DNA from: Sulfuritalea sp.
GTDB taxonomy: Bacteria > Pseudomonadota > Gammaproteobacteria > Burkholderiales > Rhodocyclaceae
NCBI GenBank assembly: GCA_023700805.1
Contig: JAMPYF010000004.1
Span: 9,341 to 73,340 of the forward strand
DNA: 64,000 nucleotides
Direction of reading: 5' to 3'
Shown here: positions 4,061 to 49,258 of the stretch, piece after piece
Layout of the letters: each line of letters starts with the position of its first letter
Numbering within the stretch: position 1 is the stretch's first letter
Position numbers and translations under genes: made by a program
The notes under the pieces: model-generated
The model's database searches: none
What the model was told of the DNA's origin: nothing
Seen by the model: the letters and a program-made list of their open reading frames with translations, nothing else

Positions 4061-4239
4061 GGCTTGCGGCCTGTGGTGACGATCCCCTGGCGTATTTCCT
4101 TATTACGAGTAATGGTTTTACCTGAAAGCAGGTATCATGAAATAAAAAACGTCTTTATTTCAGTTAGTTGCTATGCCTTTGGTGATACACGAGGAGCAGC
4201 TGGAAAGAGTGTGCCAAAGCGGAAACCATGGGAAATTAG

Positions 4240-7200
4240 ATGGCCAATACAGCACCGACATTCACCGCGGGATACGGCAAGCTCACCACCGATTTCGGCG
4301 CCAAAGGAGATGCCGGCTACAGTCTGGCCGTGCAGGCGGACGGCAAGTTTGTCGTCGTTGGTCGTAGCGACAACGGCAGCAACTATGACATTGCTGTCGC
4401 ACGCTACAACGCCGACGGATCATTGGACACCAGCTTCAGCGGCGACGGCAAAGTCACCACGGGCATAGGGACCGGCGATGATTCGGGTCAGAGCGTTGCG
4501 ATACAGGCCGACGGCAAGATTCTGGTGGCGGGTTACAGCTACAACGGCAGCAATAACGATTTCGCGGTGGTTCGCTACAACGTTGATGGCAGCCTCGATT
4601 CGACCTTCAGCGGCGACGGCAAGCTCACCAGGGCAATCGGCAGCGGCTATGACATGGCCTCCGCAGTTACGATCCTGGCGGACGGCAAGATACTTGTCAC
4701 TGGCAGCGCCCAGAACGGCAACGCCTATGACACCGCCTTTCTGCGCTACAACCCCGATGGATCGCCAGACACCAGCTTCGATGGCGATGGAATCCTTACG
4801 TCCGCAAACCGCGGCAGCAACGACACCGGCGAAAGCGTGGCGGTGCTGTCCGATGGCAAGGTATTGATCGCCGGTTTCGGCTACAACGGCAGCAATAACG
4901 ACTTCGCCCTGACACGCTACAACGCCGACGGTAGCCTCGATACCGGGTTTGGCACCGATGGCAAAGTCACTACCGCCGTTGGCCAGCGCGATGATATTGG
5001 CCACGGCATTGCGATCCAGCCCGACGGCAAGATTCTCGTGGCGGGAAGCACCTGGGTGCCGACCAACCCCGACGACATCTACTTCAACACCGATTTCGCG
5101 CTGGCACGCTACAACGCCGACGGCAGTATCGATAGCACGTTCGGCGCGGATGGCGTAGCCACTGTCAATGTTCGCAGAACCCGCGCCAGCGATGATGCGT
5201 TCACCGTCCGTGTGCTCGATGACGGCAAGATACTGGTGGCCGGCACCAGCGATATCGGGCTCTTTGCCGATTTCGGTCTGGCTCGCTTCAATGCCGACGG
5301 CAGCGTCGATACCAGTTTCGGCGCAGCCTATTCGCTGGGCGGCACGGTGGCCTTCGCTACATCCGGTGCGGCCGTGGTGCTGGACAGCAGCGTGACGATC
5401 GCCGACGCCGAACTCGATGCCCGCAACGGGGGTGCCGGCGACTACGCCGGCGCCGTAGTGACACTAGCGCGTCACGGCGGCGCTAGAAGCGATGACGTCT
5501 TTGACTTCGCTGCGACCGGTGCTGCATTTACCGTCGCCGGCGACAGCCTGCTCGCCGGCGGCTTGGCCTTCGCCACCTGGAGCCAGAACAATGGATCGCT
5601 GAGCATCGTCTTCACCAGCAGCGGGACGGTGGCGACCAATGCACTGGTGGACAATGTGCTGGAACACATCGGCTACCGCAACATGAGCTTTGCGCCCCCG
5701 GCGTCGGTGCAGATCGACTGGACCCTTACCGACAGCCACGTCATTGCCGGTGAGCCATTCCCTTCCCTTATGGACATGCCCCGCAGCGTCACCGGCAGCA
5801 CTACGGTAAGCATTACGGCGATCAGCCATTCCAACACCGCCCCCGAATTCAGCACGCTGCCGCCGGGTATCGTCACGACGCCGGTTGGAACCGGCCGCGA
5901 CGAAGCGCGCGCCGTCACCCTGCAAGCCGACGGCAAACTTCTAGCGGCGGGCTACAGCTACAACGGCAGCAATTCCGACTTCGCCCTGGTGCGCTACAAC
6001 CCGGACGGCAGCCTCGACACCAGCTTCAGCGGCGACGGTAAGCTCACCAACGCGATCGGTTCGAGCAACGACTACGTCTACAGTGTCACTACGCAGGCAG
6101 ATGGCAAGATTCTGGTCGCGGGAAAGACTTACATCGGTGCGACGGGTATTGTTCTCAATAGTGTGGGCGGCAGCAGTGCCGACTGGAGTTCGGCGCTGGC
6201 TCGCTACAACGCGGATGGCAGCCTGGACACCACCTTCAGCGGGGACGGAAAGCTCACCACCACGTTCGGCAGCAACGACACCGTGGGACGGAGCCTTGCC
6301 GTGCAAGCCGATGGCAAGATACTGGTCGCCGGGTACAGCGGCAGCACCCACAGCAATTTCGCCCTGTTGCGTTACAACGCCGACGGCAGCCTCGATACTG
6401 GTTTCGATGCGGACGGTGGAGTCACCACGGATATCGGCTATACCAGCAACGACTACGGCACGGCGGTCGCAGTGGAGGCGGATGGCAGGATCGTGGTCGC
6501 CGGCAGCAGCAATGGCGACTTCGCCGTGGCCCGCTACAACGGCAACGGCAGCCTCGATACGAGCTTTAGCGGCGATGGCCGGCTGACTACCGCCATCGGT
6601 ACCGGCAATGACGAGGGACAATGCCTGGCGCTTCAGGCCGATGGCAAGATTCTCGTCGCGGGAAGCAGCAACAACGGCAGCAACGGCGATTTTGCCGTGG
6701 TCCGCTACAACGCCGACGGCAGCCTCGATGCCGGCTTCGGCGGCGATGGAATCGTGACCACCGCCATTGGCAGCGCCTATGATTCGGCCGAGAGCATGGC
6801 CTTGCAGGCAGACGGCAAGGTCGTGGTGGCAGGCTACAGCTGGAACGGCCACGATTATGACGTGGCACTGGTGCGTTACAACAGCGACGGCAGTCTCGAC
6901 ACCAGTTTCAGTGGTGACGGCCTGGTCACCACGGATGTCAATGCCGTCAACAACTATGGCTACAGCGTTGCCGTGCAAGCGGACGGCAAGATCGTGGTGG
7001 CGGGGCAAAGTTACAAGGCCGGCAGCCCTTACTCGGACTCCGACTTCGCCGTCATCCGCTACAACGGCGACGGCAGTCTCGACACAACTTTCGAGTCCGC
7101 ACCAACGACCGATGCAGCCAGACTGTTCCACGCCGGCGGCGCACCCATCCTGCTCGACACCAGTCTGGCTTTCAGTGATGCCGAACTGGATGTCTTGAAC

Positions 7201-10200
7201 GCTGGCGCGGGCGATTACGCCGGTGCGTCGGTAACGCTGGCCCGCTTTGGCGGCGCCAATGCCGACGACGTGTTCAGCTTCGATTTTTCCGGAAGTTCGA
7301 TTTCTATCACGGGAAACTACTTACTGAGCGCAGGACAGGCCTTCGCCAGCTTCGGCCAATCCGCCGGCACGCTTGTCATATCCCTCGATAGCAGCGAAAC
7401 CGTCGCGACGCATGCGTTGTTGCAGGAAACGCTCGAACACATCACTTACCAGAATACAAATGCAGCCCCTCCGGCGGGGGTACGAATCGAGTGGACTCTC
7501 AACGATGGCAATACCGGTGACCAGGGCCTGGGTCAAGCTCTCGGTACGTCCGGCAGCAGTGTGGTGGCAGTTTCGGCAGCGGCATACTCGCCTGCGCTTG
7601 GCCGCCTTATTGCCGACCAAGCGGTGATCGAAGGGCTGGCCTTCAGTCTTGCGCTGCCCGCCGATACCTTTGTCGATGGCGATGCCGGCGACAGCCTCAG
7701 TTACAGCGCGTCCCTCGCGAACGGCGCCGCCCTGCCGCCCTGGCTTGTCTTTGACCCCGGCACGCGCACTTTCAGCGGTACGCCAATGCTGGCGGATTTG
7801 GGTTCCATCGAAGTCCAGATTAGTGTCGCGGATCAGAGCGGTCACACGGCGAGCGGGACATTTGGCATTGCTGTCGCTCTCACCACGATTCAGGGCAGTG
7901 ACTGGCATAACGTGCTGACCGGTGGCAACTCCAACGAGGCCATCGTTGGCCTCGCGGGCGACGACATTCTCGACGGCGCTGCCGGCAGCGACACCCTGAG
8001 CGGCGGGGCCGGCAGCGACATCTTCCGCTACACCGCCAAGACCGATTCGACAGCGGCGGCGATGGACGTCATCACCGATTTCGCCGGCGGGGACACGCTC
8101 GACTTCGTCGGCATGCACGGAATCACCCGGCAGCCACTCGCCTATGCCTACCAGACGGATGTCGCGACGACGCTCGCAGGAATACAGGCCGACGCCTCCA
8201 TAAGCAATACCACGGTGTTTTTCGACGATGGCAACAATGGCTATCTCTACATCAAGGGCAGCGGCAGCGGCGTCGACTTCGATGGCAGCTTGATCCAACT
8301 GGCGGGACATGTCGCGACACTGGGGCCACACGAGACGGGACTCAACGCGGCGCCCACGATCTCGGGCACAACAACGCTGGCGGATATCGCCGAGGATTCC
8401 TTACCTGCAGCTATTCGCATCTCGACCTTGTTGGCCGGTACCGATTTTGCCGACGCCGATTCCGGGGATTTGCAGGGTATCGCCGTCGTTGGCGCCGCGA
8501 CTTCATCCCTAGGCGTGTGGACGTATTCTACCGACGGCAGTGCCTGGAACCTTCTGTTTAATACTTCGTCTTCAGAAGCGGTGCTTCTCGATGCGAACAG
8601 CGAGATCCGCTTCCAGCCATTGCCTAATAGTGCGGGCACTGCCAGCCTCACGCTGCGTGCCTGGGATCAGACCTCCGGAATTGCCTCGACCCACGAGCTG
8701 CCGCAGTTCGCCAATACTTGGATCAACGGCGCGACTACGGCGTTTTCGAGCGGCACGCATGACCTGCAGGTCACCGTTACTCCGACCAACGATGCACCCT
8801 CCCTTCGCCTTGGCGCAACCAAGGCCAGCACCTACTCCGGGCCAGACTATGCGGGCGCACGCAGCATCGGCATTCAGTCGGACGGCAAGATCGTGTTGGT
8901 CGGCGGCAAGACTGACGGCTACCAGACCGACCATGCCGATTTTGTCGTGGCGCGCTTCGATGTCGATGGATCGCTCGATACAAGTTTCGGTGTTGACGGC
9001 AAGGTGACAACGGATATCCGCTCCGGAGTTGACTGGGCAAGAGATGTCGCCATCCAACAAGACGGCAAGATTGTGGTGGCAGGTTACGGAAAGGAAGCGA
9101 ATGGCGACGACTCGGATGTTGTCGTGGTCCGCTATAACGTCGATGGCAGCCTGGATACGAGTTTCAGCGGCGATGGCAAACTCACCACTGACTTGGGCTC
9201 GTGGAGGGGGGACTCGGCCTACAGCATTGCCGTCCAGGACGACGGCAAGATCCTGGCCGCTGGAAACAGCAGCGCCGGTTTCATGGCGATCGGGAACGAT
9301 TTTGCCCTGGTCCGTTACAACCCGGACGGTACGCTGGATACCAGCTTCAATGGGGATGGCATTGCCACCGCCGGTTTCATGGGTGGCACGTATCTCAAAG
9401 AAAAGGATATTGCTATTCTTGGCGATGGCAAGATTCTCATTGCCGGCACCGCGGGTGTCCTTGATGACGCCACCTTTGCTATGGCACGCTTCAATGCGGA
9501 TGGATCGCTGGATACCGGCTTCAGTGGCGATGGCAAGCTGACGACCGATATTGGCGCCACCGGTTACGACTACGCATCTGCCCTTGCCGTTCAAGCCAAT
9601 GGGAAGATATTGCTGGCTGGCCAATCGGATCATCAACTCGCGCTCGCGCGCTACAACATCGATGGCAGCCTGGATGCCGATTTCAGTGGAGACGGCATAG
9701 TCACCACAGCGCTGCAGTCGATATTTTCACTTGATGTCAAGGGCATTGTTGCGCAGGATGACGGCAAGATCCTGGTGTCCGGCTACAGCTCCATCCTCGC
9801 TGTTTTCTCCTTCCCTTTGGCTTCTGAACCGACGACGGAAATTGCCCCCGGCGTAACGATTCCGGCAGGACAGAATCCTGCCCTACTGGTGCGCTACAAC
9901 GCCGACGGCACGTTGGATACGGGTTTCGGAAGCGGCGGCATTCTCGTCGCAAATGCCGGTGGCGTTGCAGAGGTTCAGCCCGACGGCAAGATTCTCGTCA
10001 CCGGTGGCGACGGATTCGCCCTGGCGCGGTACAACAGTGACGGTACAGTGGATTCGAGCTTCGGCATTCCGACTTTCCGGGAGCAGGGTGCGCCCGTAAT
10101 TCTCGACCGCACGGCCAGAGTCTCCGACCTCGAACTTGATGCCACGGGAAACTATGCTGGTGCCTCGCTGACACTCACCCGCCACGGCGGCGCCGATGCC

Positions 10201-42617: not shown

Positions 42618-42694
42618 GGAGTGGTAGTTCAGTTGGTTAGAATACCGGCCTGTCACGCCGGGGGTCGCGGGTTCGAGTCCCGTCCACTCCGCCA
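42618..42694 (+). tRNA. tRNA-Asp(GTC)
   Basis: GGAGTGG...CCACTCC acceptor stem, anticodon GTC, TTCGA T-loop, CCA end; 77 nt. Confidence 0.97.
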
Positions 42695-42705
42695 ATAAAA
42701 TCGAT

Positions 42706-42785: not shown

Positions 42786-42848
42786 TGTTCCCGAATTGTT
42801 CCCGAAAATCCCCCGTTGTCCCGGCCTGAATGTTCCCGAATTGTTCCG
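42786..42848. repeat. TGTTCCCGAA direct repeats (possible integrase arm sites)
   Basis: Copies at 42786, 42797 and 42831, plus a partial copy at 42842. Confidence 0.65.
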
Positions 42849-43460: not shown

Positions 43461-43784
43461 ATGCTTCCATTTGATTTCGGTGGACGCCTCGCCATCCACC
43501 CTGGCGAAGCACTTTACATCGTCGGCTACAGCCGCACTCTCGAGGGCGGCAAAAAAACCGCTCGCAACCTGATGTCGCGCAACGCCTACCCGCTGCCCAT
43601 CACCCTGGTTGCCCGACAGCGCCGGGTTCTTGTCAGCGATGTCCTGCGCGCAGTCGGGATAGGCGAACCCGCCAGCAGCGGCCCTCAGGCGCTGGCTCCG
43701 CTGCAAGTCCCTGTCGCGGTCAAGCGCGGCCCCGGCCGGCCTCGCAAAGCGGCACAGATACGCGCGGTGGATCATGGGCAATGA
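43461..43784 (+). CDS. small DNA-binding protein (excisionase/AlpA-like) with AT-hook-like tail
   Basis: TARNLMSRNAYPLP...RRVLVSDV; KRGPGRPRK; GGAG RBS. Confidence 0.55.
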   Translation: MLPFDFGGRLAIHPGEALYIVGYSRTLEGGKKTARNLMSRNAYPLPITLVARQRRVLVSDVLRAVGIGEPASSGPQALAPLQVPVAVKRGPGRPRKAAQIRAVDHGQ

Positions 43785-44565
43785 CTCCATCACTGTCCGC
43801 AAGCGCCGCAAATGGTCGGCTGTCCCCGACGATGTTCTCGAAGATATCCGGCTCAGCCTGAGGGCACGTGCCGTTCTGGGATGGATGCTGGGCCGGCCCG
43901 ACGGCTGGGAAATCCAGATCGAGCACATGCTGCGCGTCCTGGGCCTGACGGAGTTTGTCTGGGCAGCCATCCGGACGGAACTCCAGCAGGCAGGCTATTA
44001 CCGGCAAACCAGAGTCCGCCAAGCCAACGGCACCATCACCTGGATCAAGGACGTTCTCGATCCGCCGGAGCCACCATCCCCGAGAGAATCAGGGATGGTG
44101 AAAACCATCCGTGGCTCCGCCGGGGATGGCTCAGCCGCGCGCGGTGCGGCCATGCATGGTTCCCTCGGGGATGTACCACCAGTAGTTGACCAGAATGAAA
44201 TACCACCACCACCTACCGCCTCCAAAGTACCTGTATCGAAGGTAATCAGCGGACCAACGGAGTCGGTGGTGGCGGTGGAGCTTCTCGATGAACTGGTGGA
44301 AGCGGCTTTCTGGAAAAGCCGGCAGTCCGGGAAATCCATCTGCAACCTGAACGGCTGGCGAGCCACGGTCAGAAAGCGTATTCAGGAAAAAGGCCCCAGC
44401 CCGGAAGATCGGGATTGCCTGAAGGAGTGGCGTGAAGCCATGAGCGCGCCGCCGCCAGCGGAAACGCCGGCAGTCGCTGAGGCGATCAATCCCGATCCGG
44501 AATTGCGAGAGCAACGAATGAGCATGCTCAATTCCGCCAGCAAAAAACTGAAGGGGCTGACGTGA
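43774..44565 (+). CDS. phage/plasmid replication-initiator-like winged-HTH protein
   Basis: DIRLSLRARAVLGWMLGRPDGW...ELQQAGY pattern followed by a low-complexity linker. Confidence 0.6.
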   Translation: MGNDSITVRKRRKWSAVPDDVLEDIRLSLRARAVLGWMLGRPDGWEIQIEHMLRVLGLTEFVWAAIRTELQQAGYYRQTRVRQANGTITWIKDVLDPPEPPSPRESGMVKTIRGSAGDGSAARGAAMHGSLGDVPPVVDQNEIPPPPTASKVPVSKVISGPTESVVAVELLDELVEAAFWKSRQSGKSICNLNGWRATVRKRIQEKGPSPEDRDCLKEWREAMSAPPPAETPAVAEAINPDPELREQRMSMLNSASKKLKGLT

Positions 44566-44626
44566 TCCCGAACCCATCCACAGACCTGATGTATCCGCAA
44601 TGTCGTTCCTACGGAGAGTTGATGCA

Positions 44627-45304
44627 ATGATTCTGGCAATCCTCAATACCAAGGGTGGCGTCGGCAAGACCACCACCGCGCTCAACCTGGCCATCGCCTG
44701 CAAGCTCCACGGCCGTGATGTCCTCGCCGTGGATGGAGACCGACAGGGCACCCTGATGGCCGCGCTCTCGGGCCGTGAAGTCGAGCCCACGATCCCCTGT
44801 GTCCACTACCCCGACGGTCAGGCGTTGCGTCAGCAAGTGATCTTGGCCAGGGACCGCTATACCGATATCGTCATCGATGCAGGCGGGCGGGATTCGACGG
44901 CACTGCGCGCTGCACTGGTCCTGGCCGATCACGTTCTCATTCCGCTGCAACCCCGATCTTTCGACCTCTGGGCATTGAATGACATGACCGGACTGCTGGC
45001 TCAGGCCAGAGCAACGAGGGATATATCGGCCTCCGTCTTCCTCTGCATGGCCGACCCGACCGGCAGCGACAATGCCGCGACGGCCGGATCGCTACCGCCG
45101 GGTGTTGGCTATGTCGACGCACCCGTGGTGCGGCGGAAGGCAGTGGCCAGCATTGCGGCGATGGGCTGTTCGATCCTTGAATTCCCAGCCAGAGACGAGA
45201 AAGCTGCCCATGAATACCGCTGCCTGGCGGGGGCCGTGTTCGGCTGGCCATTCAGTGAAATGCGCAGTGAAACGTGCAGTCAAACGACGGAAGGGCTACG
45301 GTGA
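44627..45304 (+). CDS. parA: ParA-family ATPase (type Ib)
   Basis: NTKGGVGKTT, VDGDRQG, VIDAGG. Confidence 0.88.
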   Translation: MILAILNTKGGVGKTTTALNLAIACKLHGRDVLAVDGDRQGTLMAALSGREVEPTIPCVHYPDGQALRQQVILARDRYTDIVIDAGGRDSTALRAALVLADHVLIPLQPRSFDLWALNDMTGLLAQARATRDISASVFLCMADPTGSDNAATAGSLPPGVGYVDAPVVRRKAVASIAAMGCSILEFPARDEKAAHEYRCLAGAVFGWPFSEMRSETCSQTTEGLR

Positions 45305-45308
45305 ACCG

Positions 45309-45545
45309 ATGGCGATCCTACGTAGACCTGCCGCAGTTCCTGCAGTAGTTCCGGCGCAGGACGACATCAAGGATTTCATTGATCAGGCACCGGACGGCAG
45401 GAAGTCGATCAAGCGGACAGGGAAGAAAAACGTGATCACCGTCACGATCGATCCGGCCGTACTGGCGCGCCTGGACGATTGGGCGCAGAGCAGGGGGATC
45501 AGTCGCGCGGCGGCGATTGCGGTGGCAGTGGCGAAGTTGAAGTAG
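45309..45545 (+). CDS. ParG/CopG-like ribbon-helix-helix protein
   Basis: ITVTIDPAVLARLDDWAQSRGISRAA, directly after parA. Confidence 0.75.
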   Translation: MAILRRPAAVPAVVPAQDDIKDFIDQAPDGRKSIKRTGKKNVITVTIDPAVLARLDDWAQSRGISRAAAIAVAVAKLK

Positions 45546-45580: not shown

Positions 45581-46657
45581 TCAGCGCAAGGAAACACCCG
45601 CCTCCTTGCCCGGCACGAATCCTCGTGAGGACGCCCATGCGTCGAAATATGGTCGCAACTCGTCGGGCAGGTCGAGCACGAAGTCGATATCCAGCGGATA
45701 GCTGATCGGCATCCGATCCTTGACCAGGTCGAGCAGGGCTTCACCCTGCTTGCGGTCCTTCGGGCGCTTGGTGGCCTTGCGCTCCGGCTTATCGGCCAGC
45801 CACAACTTGTGCAGGGCCATCCAGCGTGGATCCGGCGCGTAGATCGGGCAGGTCTTGAGATCGCGGGAAACGATCACGTGCCGGACCGCCCTGCCTTGCA
45901 GCAGCCACTCCTGTTCCTGAAATACCGGCAAGGGTTCGAAGACTTCGTTTTCCGGCAGGGTACGAAATACCGAGGGGGCGGCAAGCAGTTCGACTTCATA
46001 GCCGGTGCGGTCCAGTGCCTGGTAGCGTTTGCCCCGATTGATCGTGAAGCTGGCGTCGACCGCCTTGAGCGCGCGCATCAATGACGAACCTGTTGGACGA
46101 TCGTTGGCCTTGGAGAGCGACACCGTGGTGCCGCGGCACCACGAAAGATCAAAATCATCCGTCTCGTCTGCAATACCCGCCGCGAACCGGGCGCCCGCCT
46201 CGACCTCGTAGGCCGCAAAGGCGTTGGTGCCGACAACCAGCAGATCGGAACCCAGCAGCCCCTGGATATCCAGCTCGCGCAGAATGGCGGCAGGCCGATT
46301 GGTCGCCATGGGCAAACGATGTCCGCGATAGGAGCGTATCGTGTCGAGCAAGGCTGCCTCGGTTTCGACAAGCGCCGCCTTTGCTGCGTCACGATCGCGC
46401 TGATAGGACTCGTAACGCGCCTCGGTTTCCGGGGCGCGAATGCCTTGAGATTTCCCCTGATCGCCGGCAGCGTGCTTGACGGTCAGGTACTCGCCCGAGT
46501 CCTTGACGACCCAGTACATGGACGAGGGAAAGCTTTCCAGTTGGCGGAGTGCGCTGATCCACGCATCATGGCGCTGCGCCAAATTCGCGCAGAGCCGCCA
46601 AGCCTCATCCGAAAAGGTGCTGAATATCATAGTGAGATGAATTGTAAAGAATTCCAC
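45581..46657 (-). CDS. GSU2403-like nucleotidyltransferase-fold protein
   Basis: VVGTNAFAAYE, TDDFDL, PDPRWMALHKLWL, KRPKD. Confidence 0.75.
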   Translation of the reverse strand: MEFFTIHLTMIFSTFSDEAWRLCANLAQRHDAWISALRQLESFPSSMYWVVKDSGEYLTVKHAAGDQGKSQGIRAPETEARYESYQRDRDAAKAALVETEAALLDTIRSYRGHRLPMATNRPAAILRELDIQGLLGSDLLVVGTNAFAAYEVEAGARFAAGIADETDDFDLSWCRGTTVSLSKANDRPTGSSLMRALKAVDASFTINRGKRYQALDRTGYEVELLAAPSVFRTLPENEVFEPLPVFQEQEWLLQGRAVRHVIVSRDLKTCPIYAPDPRWMALHKLWLADKPERKATKRPKDRKQGEALLDLVKDRMPISYPLDIDFVLDLPDELRPYFDAWASSRGFVPGKEAGVSLR

Positions 46658-47094
46658 CTGAAATTGACGAAAATTGGCGATTTAGGTGGAAAACTACTGC
46701 AAGCAGCCGTTGCACGCCAACCACAGGCTGCCCAGAAAAAATAATTCCTGCGATTCATCTCCCTCCGCCCCTGTCAGTTTTGCTGTTTCTCTGCCTGTCC
46801 CGTTGTTACGGGCTACCTGTCGTAACCACGCTTGACACCGGATTTCTCGCTCGATATCGTGCATTCCATCAACCGTGACGCATAATGCCTCGCGGGCGAA
46901 GTGGTAGCTGGCCACACGAAATAAACAGCATTAAAAATCGCTGCTCATTACGCATGTGGTGGCAGCGAATGCGCAGGCGGAACTCAAACGGGTTTCGTCG
47001 TTATCGAGTGGCGGACCTTGAGCTGCCCTCCTCAAAAGCAGTGATGACGGTCTCGCTCGTTCCTTGAATACAGCCTCTGGCTGTTTTAATTTCT

Positions 47095-47560
47095 CTTCTC
47101 CGCCCAAAGAGACGGAAGCGATGGAGAAATCCTGCAACACCCGTCGTGACGGGCCTGGCAGGCGCGGACGGGATCAATCGCCGCGCACTACTACCCGCAC
47201 TAAAACTCCTTTCGACCGCAGCAACGGGGGCCGCCAACGCAAATGGCCGGCCAGCAGGCCAGGCAATCTGCCATCCTCGCGCCAACGTCCCAAGAGCCAT
47301 AAGTACTCTCCCACTTCACCGTCGGCCGCCATGCCGACAGCCATCCCCCCGCCGGGCGCAAGCCCTTTGCGATGGCGTGCGAGTGCAACTCTGGGCGTGA
47401 GGCTCGCCCGAATCTATCCCTCATCCCGGTCGTGATCGACGACCAGCACTCCGCAGCGACCGGCTGAATCCGGTTCAACACTCACCGACAGGTGGCGGGG
47501 ATCGGAGTGCGGCTGGACCTTGGACCGTCGGGTACGCCTGACGGTCCGAGTCCAGTCCTC
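47095..47560 (+). ncRNA. candidate large structured RNA upstream of the tyrosine recombinase
   Basis: Near-continuous hairpins, including GCAA and GACA (GNRA) and TACG (UNCG) tetraloops and a multibranch helix; boundaries approximate. Confidence 0.55.
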
Positions 47561-47605
47561 GATCATGGCCAGCATGGACAGAATAAATGTTGACAAGGAG
47601 CGGAC

Positions 47606-48574
47606 ATGAACAAATTCCCGACGGAGCGCAACTTCGGCTACGGCAAACAACTCGACTGGGCCGGGCACCAGGCATTACTCGATCTCTATGGCCGAGGGCA
47701 TTACGCCACCGTCGCCACCCATAGCCGGCGCTGGAGCCGGTTCTGCGCCTGGGCAAGGGCCGAACACGGTATCCGTGATGCCAGACATATTGATCAGCAC
47801 GTCATCGAAGATTACGCCGCCACCCTGCAAGGCCAGGTCAATGAAGAATCCCTGAGCATCAGCTACGCCCAGAACCTGCTTTCGACCCTGAACACCGCCC
47901 TCGAAGCTATGCGACGAGACAAGTTGGTCAGGCTGGATTCTCCCTCCGGGTGGGTCGGGCTGCGCTCCATGGTGAGAACCGATCCACCGGGCGGCATGGA
48001 TCGGGTCCAGGTCGATGCCTTGATCGCCCGTCTGCGCAAGCTCGATTACCGACGCGCGGCGTCGGTCGTGCGACTGGTACGCAACTTTGGACTGCGATTA
48101 CGTGAGGCTGTCCTGGGCGATCTTCATGAATGGCAGCGTCAGGCAAGGACGTTCGGAAAGATCGATATCCGCGAGGGCACCAAGGGCGGCCGGGGCAGGG
48201 AAGTAGAACGCTGGGTCGTGGTTAGCGAAGACGGCATGCTGGCGATCAGTGAAGCCATGCATCTGAGCCAGTCGCTCGGCTGCGAGCGCAACCTGCTGAA
48301 GTCCGCCGAATCCTTCAACGATCTGGTCAACAACGGCGAGATCAATCTAACCCGCCGGCATCTGCATGAATTCGGGATCAAGGGGTATCACGAACTGCGG
48401 GCGGCCTGGGCCTGCGAGCGGTATCTGCAGGAAACCGGATGTCCGGCGCCGGTGATGCGAGGAAGCCGACTAGCGGATCCCGCTGTGGATGCCGAGGCGC
48501 GCCGGATCATTGCCCAGGAATTGGGCCACAACCGGATCGACGTGGTTGTGGAATACATCGGGGCCCGACCATGA
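47606..48574 (+). CDS. tyrosine recombinase (Integrase_1-like)
   Basis: Intact R-K-HxxR-H-Y set: GLRLRE, GTKGG, YHELR, LGHNR, VEYIG; AAGGAG RBS. Confidence 0.88.
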   Translation: MNKFPTERNFGYGKQLDWAGHQALLDLYGRGHYATVATHSRRWSRFCAWARAEHGIRDARHIDQHVIEDYAATLQGQVNEESLSISYAQNLLSTLNTALEAMRRDKLVRLDSPSGWVGLRSMVRTDPPGGMDRVQVDALIARLRKLDYRRAASVVRLVRNFGLRLREAVLGDLHEWQRQARTFGKIDIREGTKGGRGREVERWVVVSEDGMLAISEAMHLSQSLGCERNLLKSAESFNDLVNNGEINLTRRHLHEFGIKGYHELRAAWACERYLQETGCPAPVMRGSRLADPAVDAEARRIIAQELGHNRIDVVVEYIGARP

Positions 48575-48906
48575 GCATCGCCATGTTGTTGAAGCGTGCG
48601 TTGCCGGGAGCGAAGGCAAGCATCAACGGGCATATTTATCGGGGTGAGCGGATTGCGGTGGCGATTCAGGGGCGATTCCAGATCAGCGAACCGCACCAGT
48701 GGCAGGCCAAGCATCTGCGCTGGGTGCTGGAACGTTGGGCCGAGCCGTTATCATCCAGCACCCGCTACGATTACTGGCGCACGGCCCGGGCGCTGGCATC
48801 GGCACTCGGACGATGGGCGGATTGGGAGCCCCATTTGCGCGGGCCATGGTACCGACGGGGAGTAGGTGGGCGGCCGGCGAAGATTGCTCAAGGCAAAAGG
48901 CCATAG
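48571..48906 (+). CDS. small partner protein resembling an integrase N-terminal SAM-like domain
   Basis: ATGA overlap with the recombinase stop; WQAKHLRWVL...SSTRYDYWRT. Confidence 0.7.
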   Translation: MSIAMLLKRALPGAKASINGHIYRGERIAVAIQGRFQISEPHQWQAKHLRWVLERWAEPLSSSTRYDYWRTARALASALGRWADWEPHLRGPWYRRGVGGRPAKIAQGKRP

Positions 48907-49258
48907 ACTCACTACGGTCGCGATCAGATTCGCTGGCACCGGCACATCCAGCGCCTCCCCACGCCTTGCCATTCTCGGTCCTCGCCACATAGACGATGGC
49001 GCCAGCGAGATTTCCACCCTCCGTATTGATCTCGACTTGTTTCGCCTCCTTCGCATATTCACCGGTGCTTGCATCGATGCAGCAGTCGCGGCAGCCGAGC
49101 GCCTTGCCCGGGAGTCGGCGCTGGCGAAAAGGTGTGCCGCGAATGCGCAGTCGGTCTCTAGCGCGACGGCATAAAAGAATCAGGCCGAGCGGCCAGTTGG
49201 TTTCCGCACCCGCGCCCAAACCAGGGGAACAGCCGAATTTGCACATTGACGATAAAGC

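Follow-up and report, generated by a model that had tools for sequence, protein, structure and literature searches.

Known mobilization systems and the locus examined

To be transferred by conjugation, Salmonella Genomic Island 1 (SGI1) requires a nicking enzyme that resembles recombinases, a small partner protein, and an RNA that the island itself encodes (PMC6414798, PMC9299015). The enzyme, MpsA, is a tyrosine-recombinase-like relaxase and the experimentally studied example of the family PF12835 (Kiss et al. 2019, PMC6414798), and the partner, MpsB, has been described as resembling the N-terminal core-binding domain of lambda-family recombinases (PMC6414798). In the 2.2-kb mobilization region (mobSGI1), promoter P5, a terminator-like inverted repeat, the dispensable open reading frame (ORF) S022, a 125-bp GC-rich origin of transfer (oriT), the core of the RNA (sgm-sRNA), a hairpin, mpsA, and mpsB follow one another in one direction (PMC6414798, PMC9299015). 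The sgm-sRNA core (mob coordinates ~1,295 to 1,572) is essential for transfer, acts in trans, and comes from a primary RNA of 650 to 700 nucleotides (nt) (Nagy et al. 2021, PMC9299015). The authors assigned it no mechanism and suggested that it might help in assembling or delivering the initiation complex (PMC9299015). Here we analyze a locus of Sulfuritalea sp. that lies in a 64,000-nt stretch of DNA (the window; positions 9,341 to 73,340 of contig JAMPYF010000004.1, assembly GCA_023700805.1). We consider it likely that positions 46830-48906 of the window are a mobilization module of the mobSGI1 type, carried by an integrative island of ~85 kb at a tRNA-Asp gene.

The two loci agree in order and direction, from promoter, terminator-like hairpin, and inverted-repeat oriT-like part through RNA core and hairpin to enzyme and partner, the promoter and transcript being predicted ones in Sulfuritalea. 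Upstream of the genes and in the same direction, each has a noncoding region of ~700 nt in which GC-rich inverted repeats are followed by the RNA core; the PF12835 enzymes are homologous along their full length, and each is followed by a small 3' partner with a core-binding fold (predicted here). A terminator-like inverted repeat occurs early in the primary RNA (for SGI1, PMC9299015), and the exact sequence GGTAGCTGGCC stands past the promoter in both. The hairpin-like element by the mpsA start of SGI1 (PMC9299015) is paralleled by the 3' hairpin at 47513-47555, and both modules lie inside an integrative island that has a separate integrase. Unlike that of SGI1, the host here is a Rhodocyclaceae betaproteobacterium from groundwater and not an enteric bacterium. 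The RNA is GC-rich, with a conserved structured part of ~330 nt compared with ~200 to 275 nt for the SGI1 core; the terminator-like hairpin stands ~200 nt past the predicted start rather than 66 nt; and no S022-like ORF is conserved.

A system of this kind is already described. The initial annotation of the locus, which knew of no described mechanism for it, is superseded in this respect by mobSGI1, which the locus resembles in the order and orientation of its parts, in protein homology, and in a 5' block common to both (PMC6414798, PMC9299015). The new result is the structure of an sgm-like RNA, supported by covariation and well removed from the SGI1 family, together with its invariant single-stranded motifs and a predicted processing stem. 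Other tyrosine-recombinase-fold enzymes, namely, TcpM of Clostridium perfringens pCW3 and MobK of Klebsiella pIGRK, have been proposed to start transfer at an oriT beside their own genes (PMC9299015; PMC8152469). The Sulfuritalea enzyme would resemble them in this trait. We know of no structured RNA or MpsB-like partner reported for either TcpM or MobK.

Conservation and folding of the noncoding stretch

The + strand at 47100-47560, directly 5' of the enzyme gene, is noncoding and structured. About 450 nt that fold and hold no convincing ORF had been described here by the initial annotation, and each hairpin that it listed is present in the sequence where it was placed. The RNA fold of the + strand at 47095-47605 has a free energy of -221.6 kcal/mol, compared with -194.9 +/- 7.1 kcal/mol in 100 dinucleotide shuffles, none of which folds as well (z = -3.76); for the - strand of the same interval, z is -2.14. 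The stretch is single-copy in the 4.16-Mb genome. Rfam at gathering thresholds returned only tRNA in the 64-kb window, and at E values up to 10 on 46600-47700, it returned only a chance-level match to M23 (15 bits, E = 9.4), with no hammerhead or RAGATH motif. A protein-coding reading was rejected: ORFs of 84 to 123 amino acids (aa) overlap the stretch on both strands, none of them has a Pfam match, and the substitutions follow a paired-helix pattern. Further upstream, a 60-aa ORF (46885-47067) loses its start codon in relatives and is not kept (alignment A9).

A protein-guided scan of species-representative genomes yielded 29 loci encoding relatives of the enzyme. An nhmmer profile of the upstream region matches ~450 nt in 18 of these loci (E values of 1e-93 to 1e-134), and two further loci, cut by a contig end, match over 160 to 380 nt. 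Nucleotide identity in the core reaches ~80% where the enzyme proteins are merely 50 to 58% identical; at one locus (L039), identity is 82% over 201 nt of the stretch where the protein is 50% identical.

Covariation was counted on an alignment of 19 sequences (A2), with pairing partners slid by 1 to 3 columns and 500 shuffles as controls. RNAalifold gave 67 pairs in 13 helices. Changes on both sides were observed at 16 pairs (2 to 5 with slid partners), 96.8% of cells are paired (30 to 45% with slid partners), and none of the 500 shuffles reaches the observed covariation score. G-U cells number 99 and A-C cells 14, and two G-U pairs are invariant; this excess identifies the folding strand as the + strand, which is also sense for the downstream genes. 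Compensatory changes support the helices at 47140-53, 47321-38, 47340-76, and 47446-510, as well as the inner ACCGG/CCGGT of the last. The GGTCGT/ACGACC helix (47428-44) is nearly invariant, with one G-U change, and contributes no covariation evidence; the register of the CACC-GACA-GGTG hairpin is not maintained in relatives; and pairing of CTGGAC/GTCCAG to extend the 3' hairpin is in competition with a long-range helix that is conserved (~47225-47235/47516-47524). Conservation in the RNA is highest in the loops and single strands, and single-stranded CAACACUCACC and GGCGGGRAUC are invariant within the core junction. The structured noncoding element described in the initial annotation is borne out by conservation in 18 other loci and by compensatory changes at 16 pairs, with no Rfam match. 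A match to an oriT had been named there as a result that would refute the proposed system; the 5' quarter of the stretch is probably the oriT, and the rest would be an RNA.

Three studies have RNA-library contigs with close relatives of 47317-47519, where word depth is ~2 to 5 times that over the coding region. This evidence is weak, as contigs alone do not prove transcription; they give neither strand nor ends, and parts without cover carry no meaning.

Covariation alone cannot separate RNA from single-stranded DNA of the same strand, and the region adjoins or includes the probable oriT. The fold might then act in the transferred strand, as an extended oriT or as a single-strand initiation or promoter element recognized by the enzyme, in the way that integron integrases recognize attC. 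DNA hairpins tolerate G-T wobbles and GNA/GNRA-type loops. In integrons, too, a tyrosine-recombinase-fold protein (IntI) is found beside a strand-specific folded nucleic acid, and the N-terminal domain of an integron integrase is the best structural match of the partner protein (Z = 9.5). Integron attC sites, however, are bulged hairpins of 60 to 140 nt that recombine with attI, whereas this locus has no cassette array, is single-copy, forms a multi-helix junction of ~300 nt, and has in SGI1 a precedent for a trans-acting RNA. SGI1 needs only its 125 bp in cis, the neighboring region working in trans as RNA (PMC6414798, PMC9299015). Additionally, two G-U pairs are invariant, 99 G-U cells are a high number for a DNA structure, and RNA-library contigs cover the core, if weakly. 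We regard a role of the fold as DNA as very unlikely.

The MpsA-like enzyme and its partner

The enzyme is encoded by the sole PF12835 gene of the genome (E = 2.4e-10, 41 bits; cutoff, 23). For comparison with SGI1, we used a Salmonella match from a plasmid collection (L074), recognized as a member of the SGI1 family by the published P5 promoter (ttgacg-16-taatat). BLASTP aligned the enzyme with this SGI1-like MpsA (L074:4980-5945) over residues 5-319, i.e., the full length, at 30% identity (E = 1e-33). Across 21 homologues (A1), the catalytic residues R164/R166, K193, H262, R265, H308, and Y317 do not vary, and they are aligned with those of the SGI1-like MpsA. A catalytically intact recombinase away from the island edge had been noted in the initial annotation, and both traits are confirmed: the R, K, HxxR, H, and Y residues are all retained, and the gene lies 4.9 kb inside attL and not at an island end. 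PF12835 is treated as a DNA-transfer-like signature, not as an integrase, in one genomic-island classification scheme (PMC10484663). Given its homology to MpsA and the separate PF00589 integrase that the island has by attR, the enzyme most likely acts as a relaxase in conjugation, not as a recombinase of the island.

The enzyme keeps all tyrosine-recombinase catalytic residues and might instead perform genuine site-specific recombination, as a multimer resolvase or as a recombinase guided or scaffolded by RNA; the upstream region would then serve as the recombination site or the guide RNA. Homologues occur on small plasmids beside partition genes, the gene here is near genes for ParA and a ribbon-helix-helix (RHH) protein, and relaxase chemistry is, for MpsA, a proposal rather than a demonstrated property (PMC6414798). 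A structured noncoding RNA (bridge RNA or seekRNA) is likewise found beside the recombinase gene in mobile elements of the IS110/IS1111 type, but the recombinase there is of the DEDD/serine type and not a tyrosine recombinase (PMC11208158). The loops of the bridge RNA vary with target and donor sequences, as guide-type RNAs do; in this locus, by contrast, it is the loops and single strands that do not vary. By inspection, short of an exhaustive search, the variable hairpins show neither a match nor complementarity to the island ends (att) or the oriT-like part, so that RNA guidance, as envisaged in the initial annotation, found no support. In addition, no second copy of any part of the region is present in the genome as a partner site, and SGI1 genetics tie the homologous genes to transfer. 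A site-specific recombinase is, in our judgment, very unlikely. Regarding the three-part unit of noncoding RNA, recombinase, and partner that had been proposed, the unit itself holds, its parts co-occurring in every locus examined, from protein-first and RNA-first searches alike, and it is the assignment of the enzyme that changes, to a relaxase most likely.

The partner gene overlaps the stop codon of the enzyme gene (ATGA at 48571-48574) and is directly 3' of it in 25 of the 29 fetched loci and in both plasmids examined for the partner; in three of the four loci without it, the contig ends within ~240 nt of the match. The partner is often better conserved than the enzyme (70 to 77% versus 50 to 58% identity). 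A translationally coupled SAM-like protein of 111 aa had been recognized from the sequence, and an AlphaFold2 model (mean predicted local distance difference test score [pLDDT], 83.9) agrees, predicting a core-binding fold. An exhaustive VIA-align search with this model matched the N-terminal core-binding domains of IntI (Z = 9.5), XerA (Z = 9.3), and a Haloarcula integrase (Z = 9.0), followed by those of phage Brujita integrase, XerD, lambda Int, and Cre (Z = 7.2 to 9.5 for the whole set); Foldseek returned nothing at E values of ≤0.001. A multiple alignment links the partner to the SGI1-like MpsB through Pseudomonas and Aeromonas intermediates. On the opposite strand, a 187-aa ORF (48683-49246) is probably not a gene, as its tblastn conservation merely mirrors the antisense partner gene.

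The predicted primary transcript and the candidate oriT

Promoter-like hexamers are found in relatives (A9) at the same place as the predicted promoter (Table 1), which would be the start of a primary transcript of ~700 nt and the counterpart of SGI1 P5. At 43 nt past it, the exact 11-mer GGTAGCTGGCC (46903-46913), followed by AACAGCAT, occurs once in the window. Each of 16 beta-clade loci has a single copy of the 11-mer at the corresponding place, and L074 has it at 4239-4249, 14 nt past the published SGI1 P5 promoter.

TABLE 1 Features of the putative mobilization module, in window coordinates
Feature	Position	Strand	Basis
Predicted sigma-70-like promoter, TTGACA-17-TATCGT	46832..46860	+	Consensus scan, 10/12 matches
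Conserved 5' block of the predicted primary transcript, GUGGUAGCUGGCCAC...AAACAGCAU	46901..46932	+	Sequence conservation
Terminator-like hairpin with T-run, just 5' of the oriT-like part	47070..47093	+	Stem changes compensated in close relatives
Candidate oriT	47100..47215		AGAGAC, two GC-rich hairpins (47140-53, 47162-86), repeated GCAC-UAAAAC tract
Core of the structured RNA (sgm-sRNA-like)	47225..47525	+	Long-range closing helix around a multi-helix junction; RNAalifold, pair counts
3' hairpin	47513..47555	+	Sequence variable across relatives; no T-run, so no intrinsic terminator
3' block, AUGGCCAGC (GUGGCCGGC in most relatives)	47566..47574	+	Complementary to the 5' block
Putative atypical relaxase (MpsA-like, 322 aa) with a tyrosine-recombinase fold	47606..48574	+	PF12835
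Translationally coupled MpsB-like partner of 111 aa, predicted to be a core-binding (SAM-like) domain standing alone	48571..48906	+	Predicted fold

The stem of the terminator-like hairpin shows compensatory changes in close relatives (CAGCC/GGCTG, CCGCC/GGCGG, and CCGC/GCGG), and the hairpin is a possible attenuator of the primary transcript. Between it and the 5' block, a 7-bp inverted repeat (TCGCTGC...GCAGCGA, 46939-46975) resembles the GC-rich inverted repeat past the SGI1 transcription start; relatives have a hairpin of other sequence in its place.

The 5' ~120 nt of the structured stretch (47100-47215) are probably the oriT, judging from their motifs and from the comparison with SGI1. 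AGAGAC is invariant and lies inside the motif CAAAGAGAC, which is conserved in relatives, and the two GC-rich hairpins vary in sequence among them. AGAGACGG is an arm of a large inverted repeat in the SGI1-like oriT region (L074) and in a Halomonas plasmid, and repeats of the CAC.AAAAC motif recur in that plasmid and in an Aeromonas one. This oriT-like part is directly 5' of the RNA core, which is the position of oriT_SGI1 (PMC6414798), and the ~330 nt after it would, by analogy, be an sgm-like RNA. The invariant CACUCACCA...GGCGGGG of this RNA appears as CACUUACCAC...GGACGGG just 5' of the SGI1-like mpsA, and the motif CACUYACCAC...GG.CGGG is common to both.

GCUGGCCAC of the 5' block (46906-46914) can pair with the 3' block, which lies 32 to 87 nt ahead of the start codon across loci. 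The pairing extends over 8 to 11 bp in 14 of 17 loci, the first extension position being G-C, U-A, or C-G. The SGI1-like sequence has UGGCCC/GGGCCA at the equivalent places, a change on both sides. Such a 5'-3' stem would enclose the whole primary RNA of ~700 nt (~46867-47575), a size like that measured for SGI1.

Relatives and plasmids carrying the RNA, enzyme, and partner

A covariance model (R1) was built on the most conserved 90 nt (47425-47514). R1 finds a copy directly 5' of the enzyme gene of the Halomonas plasmid (24.9 bits, E = 0.003) and has weaker matches in Pseudomonas loci, ahead of the enzyme gene or of its operon; single-sequence folds of the latter show the same three helices with different sequence. 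In a wider MAFFT alignment (A8), the Pseudomonas-group helices did not stay in register, and this alignment was not used for a second model. R1 gave no significant match in the Aeromonas locus, where the counterpart of the CACUCACCA motif is CACUCACCAC...AGGGGA. An RNA-first search of 150 genomes of the order returned two strong matches, both followed by the enzyme and partner genes, and the same trio is present on the Halomonas and Aeromonas plasmids. A DNA search of plasmids with the whole region matched only the partner gene of the Halomonas plasmid.

Arrangement or copy number differs in several relatives. In a Pseudomonas variant (Pseudomonas putida plasmid NZ_CP043577.1, L072, 4140-7244; L043:6136-6227), the RNA core precedes a YfjI-family (DUF3987) gene and a gene for a 119-aa protein, and the enzyme and partner genes follow, with 1.7 kb between the RNA core and the enzyme gene; the P. 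putida plasmid also bears a restriction and defense cluster. The 4795-bp Aeromonas media plasmid pAeme4 (L073) has just four annotated genes, which encode the MpsA-like and MpsB-like proteins, a small RepB, and ParG. Its MpsB-like protein is 63% identical to the SGI1-like MpsB, and a 1.6-kb unannotated region contains the CACGAAAAC repeat and the AACACUCACCAC motif. Two diverged whole modules (L025 and L031) lie ~50 kb apart on one 1.2-Mb Sulfuritalea contig, and thus in one genome; their enzymes are 58% and 72% identical to that of the window, and each copy has its own ParA/RHH genes and RNA. As homologues are found on small plasmids, a replication primer like ColE1 RNA II was also considered, and it was rejected: a RepA is encoded by the Halomonas plasmid itself, the Sulfuritalea element lies in the chromosome, and homology to SGI1 accounts for all three parts.

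Island context

The 48-bp 3' end of the tRNA-Asp gene (42648-42695) is repeated exactly 84.7 kb downstream, outside the window (G000:C35:136729-136776), and just inside this attR site is a 391-aa PF00589 integrase ORF (G000:C35:135448-136623, - strand). TGTTCC-containing repeats occur near both ends. The exact tRNA-Asp repeat, the integrase, and the end repeats together place the module inside an integrative island with its own integrase. Among the end repeats, TGTTCCCGAATTGTTCC is found twice just inside attL (42786-42802 and 42831-42847) and the similar TGTTCCCGTTTTGTTCCCG (L079:8639-8660) between the integrase gene and attR; they are probably arm-type binding sites of the island integrase. 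No further repeat of the tRNA end was found within the window. The segment between the repeats includes housekeeping-looking genes (for a sigma factor, a GGDEF-EAL protein, and a histidine kinase) and may be a composite or tandem island.

Upstream of the module, 43774-45545 contains genes for a 263-aa protein, ParA (44600-45304), and the small RHH protein, which are kept in this place in relatives (L025 to L028 and L031). Variable cargo of 1 to 5.5 kb separates the ParA/RHH genes from the RNA in relatives; here it is an NTP_transf_8 nucleotidyltransferase gene (45581-46657, - strand). Coupling-protein and VirB4 families (PF12696, PF02534, and PF03135) were not found in the genome, and one PF10412 match fell below the cutoff; at 89% genome completeness, this result does not show absence, and it fits a mobilizable element without proving one.

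Assessment of the module and a possible mechanism

Several observations weigh against the assignment to the mobSGI1 type. R1 gave no significant match to the SGI1-like locus, leaving position, short motifs, and the shared 5' block as the grounds for homology to sgm-sRNA. Few or no double changes occur in the closing helix of the RNA core, and the 5'-3' stem, likewise with few or no double changes, is supported by one covarying position. A profile-profile comparison of the partner with MpsB gave a weak match (E = 0.0018, probability of 15%), the oriT assignment draws on motif similarity only, and the ~85-kb extent of the island depends on a single 48-bp repeat. Finally, no intrinsic terminator was found between the RNA and the enzyme start codon at 47606 (the 3' hairpin is not one, as it has no T-run), and one 786-nt RNA-library contig spans 47419-47754, bridging the RNA and the enzyme gene.

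These last two observations, and the location of the conserved 3' block close ahead of the start codon, are what would be expected if the structured region were a cis-acting 5' leader of the enzyme-partner operon, controlling its translation or stability with no role in trans. In SGI1, however, the RNA complements in trans, a mutant in the RNA is not rescued by MpsA and MpsB supplied from another promoter, and mpsAB are expressed without the leader (PMC9299015). The RNA core of the P. putida plasmid precedes two other genes, 1.7 kb from the enzyme gene, and invariant single strands in a closed multi-helix junction suggest a binding surface rather than an expression switch. On balance, a cis-acting leader seems unlikely.

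If the locus is a mobilization module of the mobSGI1 type, as we think likely, the promoter near 46832-46860 would drive a primary RNA of ~700 nt through the terminator-like hairpin, the oriT, and the ~330-nt core, ending just 5' of the first gene. Pairing of its 5' and 3' ends may set up processing to the equivalent of mature sgm-sRNA. The MpsA-like protein, aided by the MpsB-like partner, would nick the oriT within 47100-47215, and nicking would start single-strand transfer via the type IV secretion system of a helper element. The structured RNA would be a trans-acting cofactor of this nicking or transfer-start step, most likely bound to MpsA/MpsB as part of a ribonucleoprotein for relaxosome assembly or delivery. 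It may serve as a scaffold, a possibility raised in the initial annotation. Of this scheme, relaxase activity, the site of the oriT, and the trans action and processing of the RNA are carried over from SGI1 by homology; the conserved and covarying + strand structure, the homology to MpsA, the predicted partner fold, the gene order, the common 5' block, and the separate island integrase were observed in the present analysis. A more specific proposal, which we offer tentatively and regard as doubtful, is that the RNA is an integral subunit of a ribonucleoprotein relaxosome across the PF12835 relaxases of Beta- and Gammaproteobacteria, in which CAACACUCACC and GGCGGGRAUC bind MpsA/MpsB and either position the pair on the oriT or hand it over to a foreign coupling protein. 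If so, a complex that initiates conjugation would for the first time have an RNA component, one freed from a precursor of ~700 nt by a 5'-3' processing stem.

SGI1-type islands spread multidrug resistance, and the structure of sgm-sRNA was previously predicted from one sequence family. Here, compensatory changes accompany the conservation of an RNA at this position across environmental Betaproteobacteria, and weaker matches to the covariance model, together with common motifs, carry it over to plasmids of Halomonas, Pseudomonas, and Aeromonas. The comparative structure, the invariant motifs, and the predicted stem provide concrete targets for work on the role of sgm-sRNA. For annotation, genes for an "integrase domain-containing protein" (PF12835) in islands and small plasmids would mark mobilizable elements, not integration modules.

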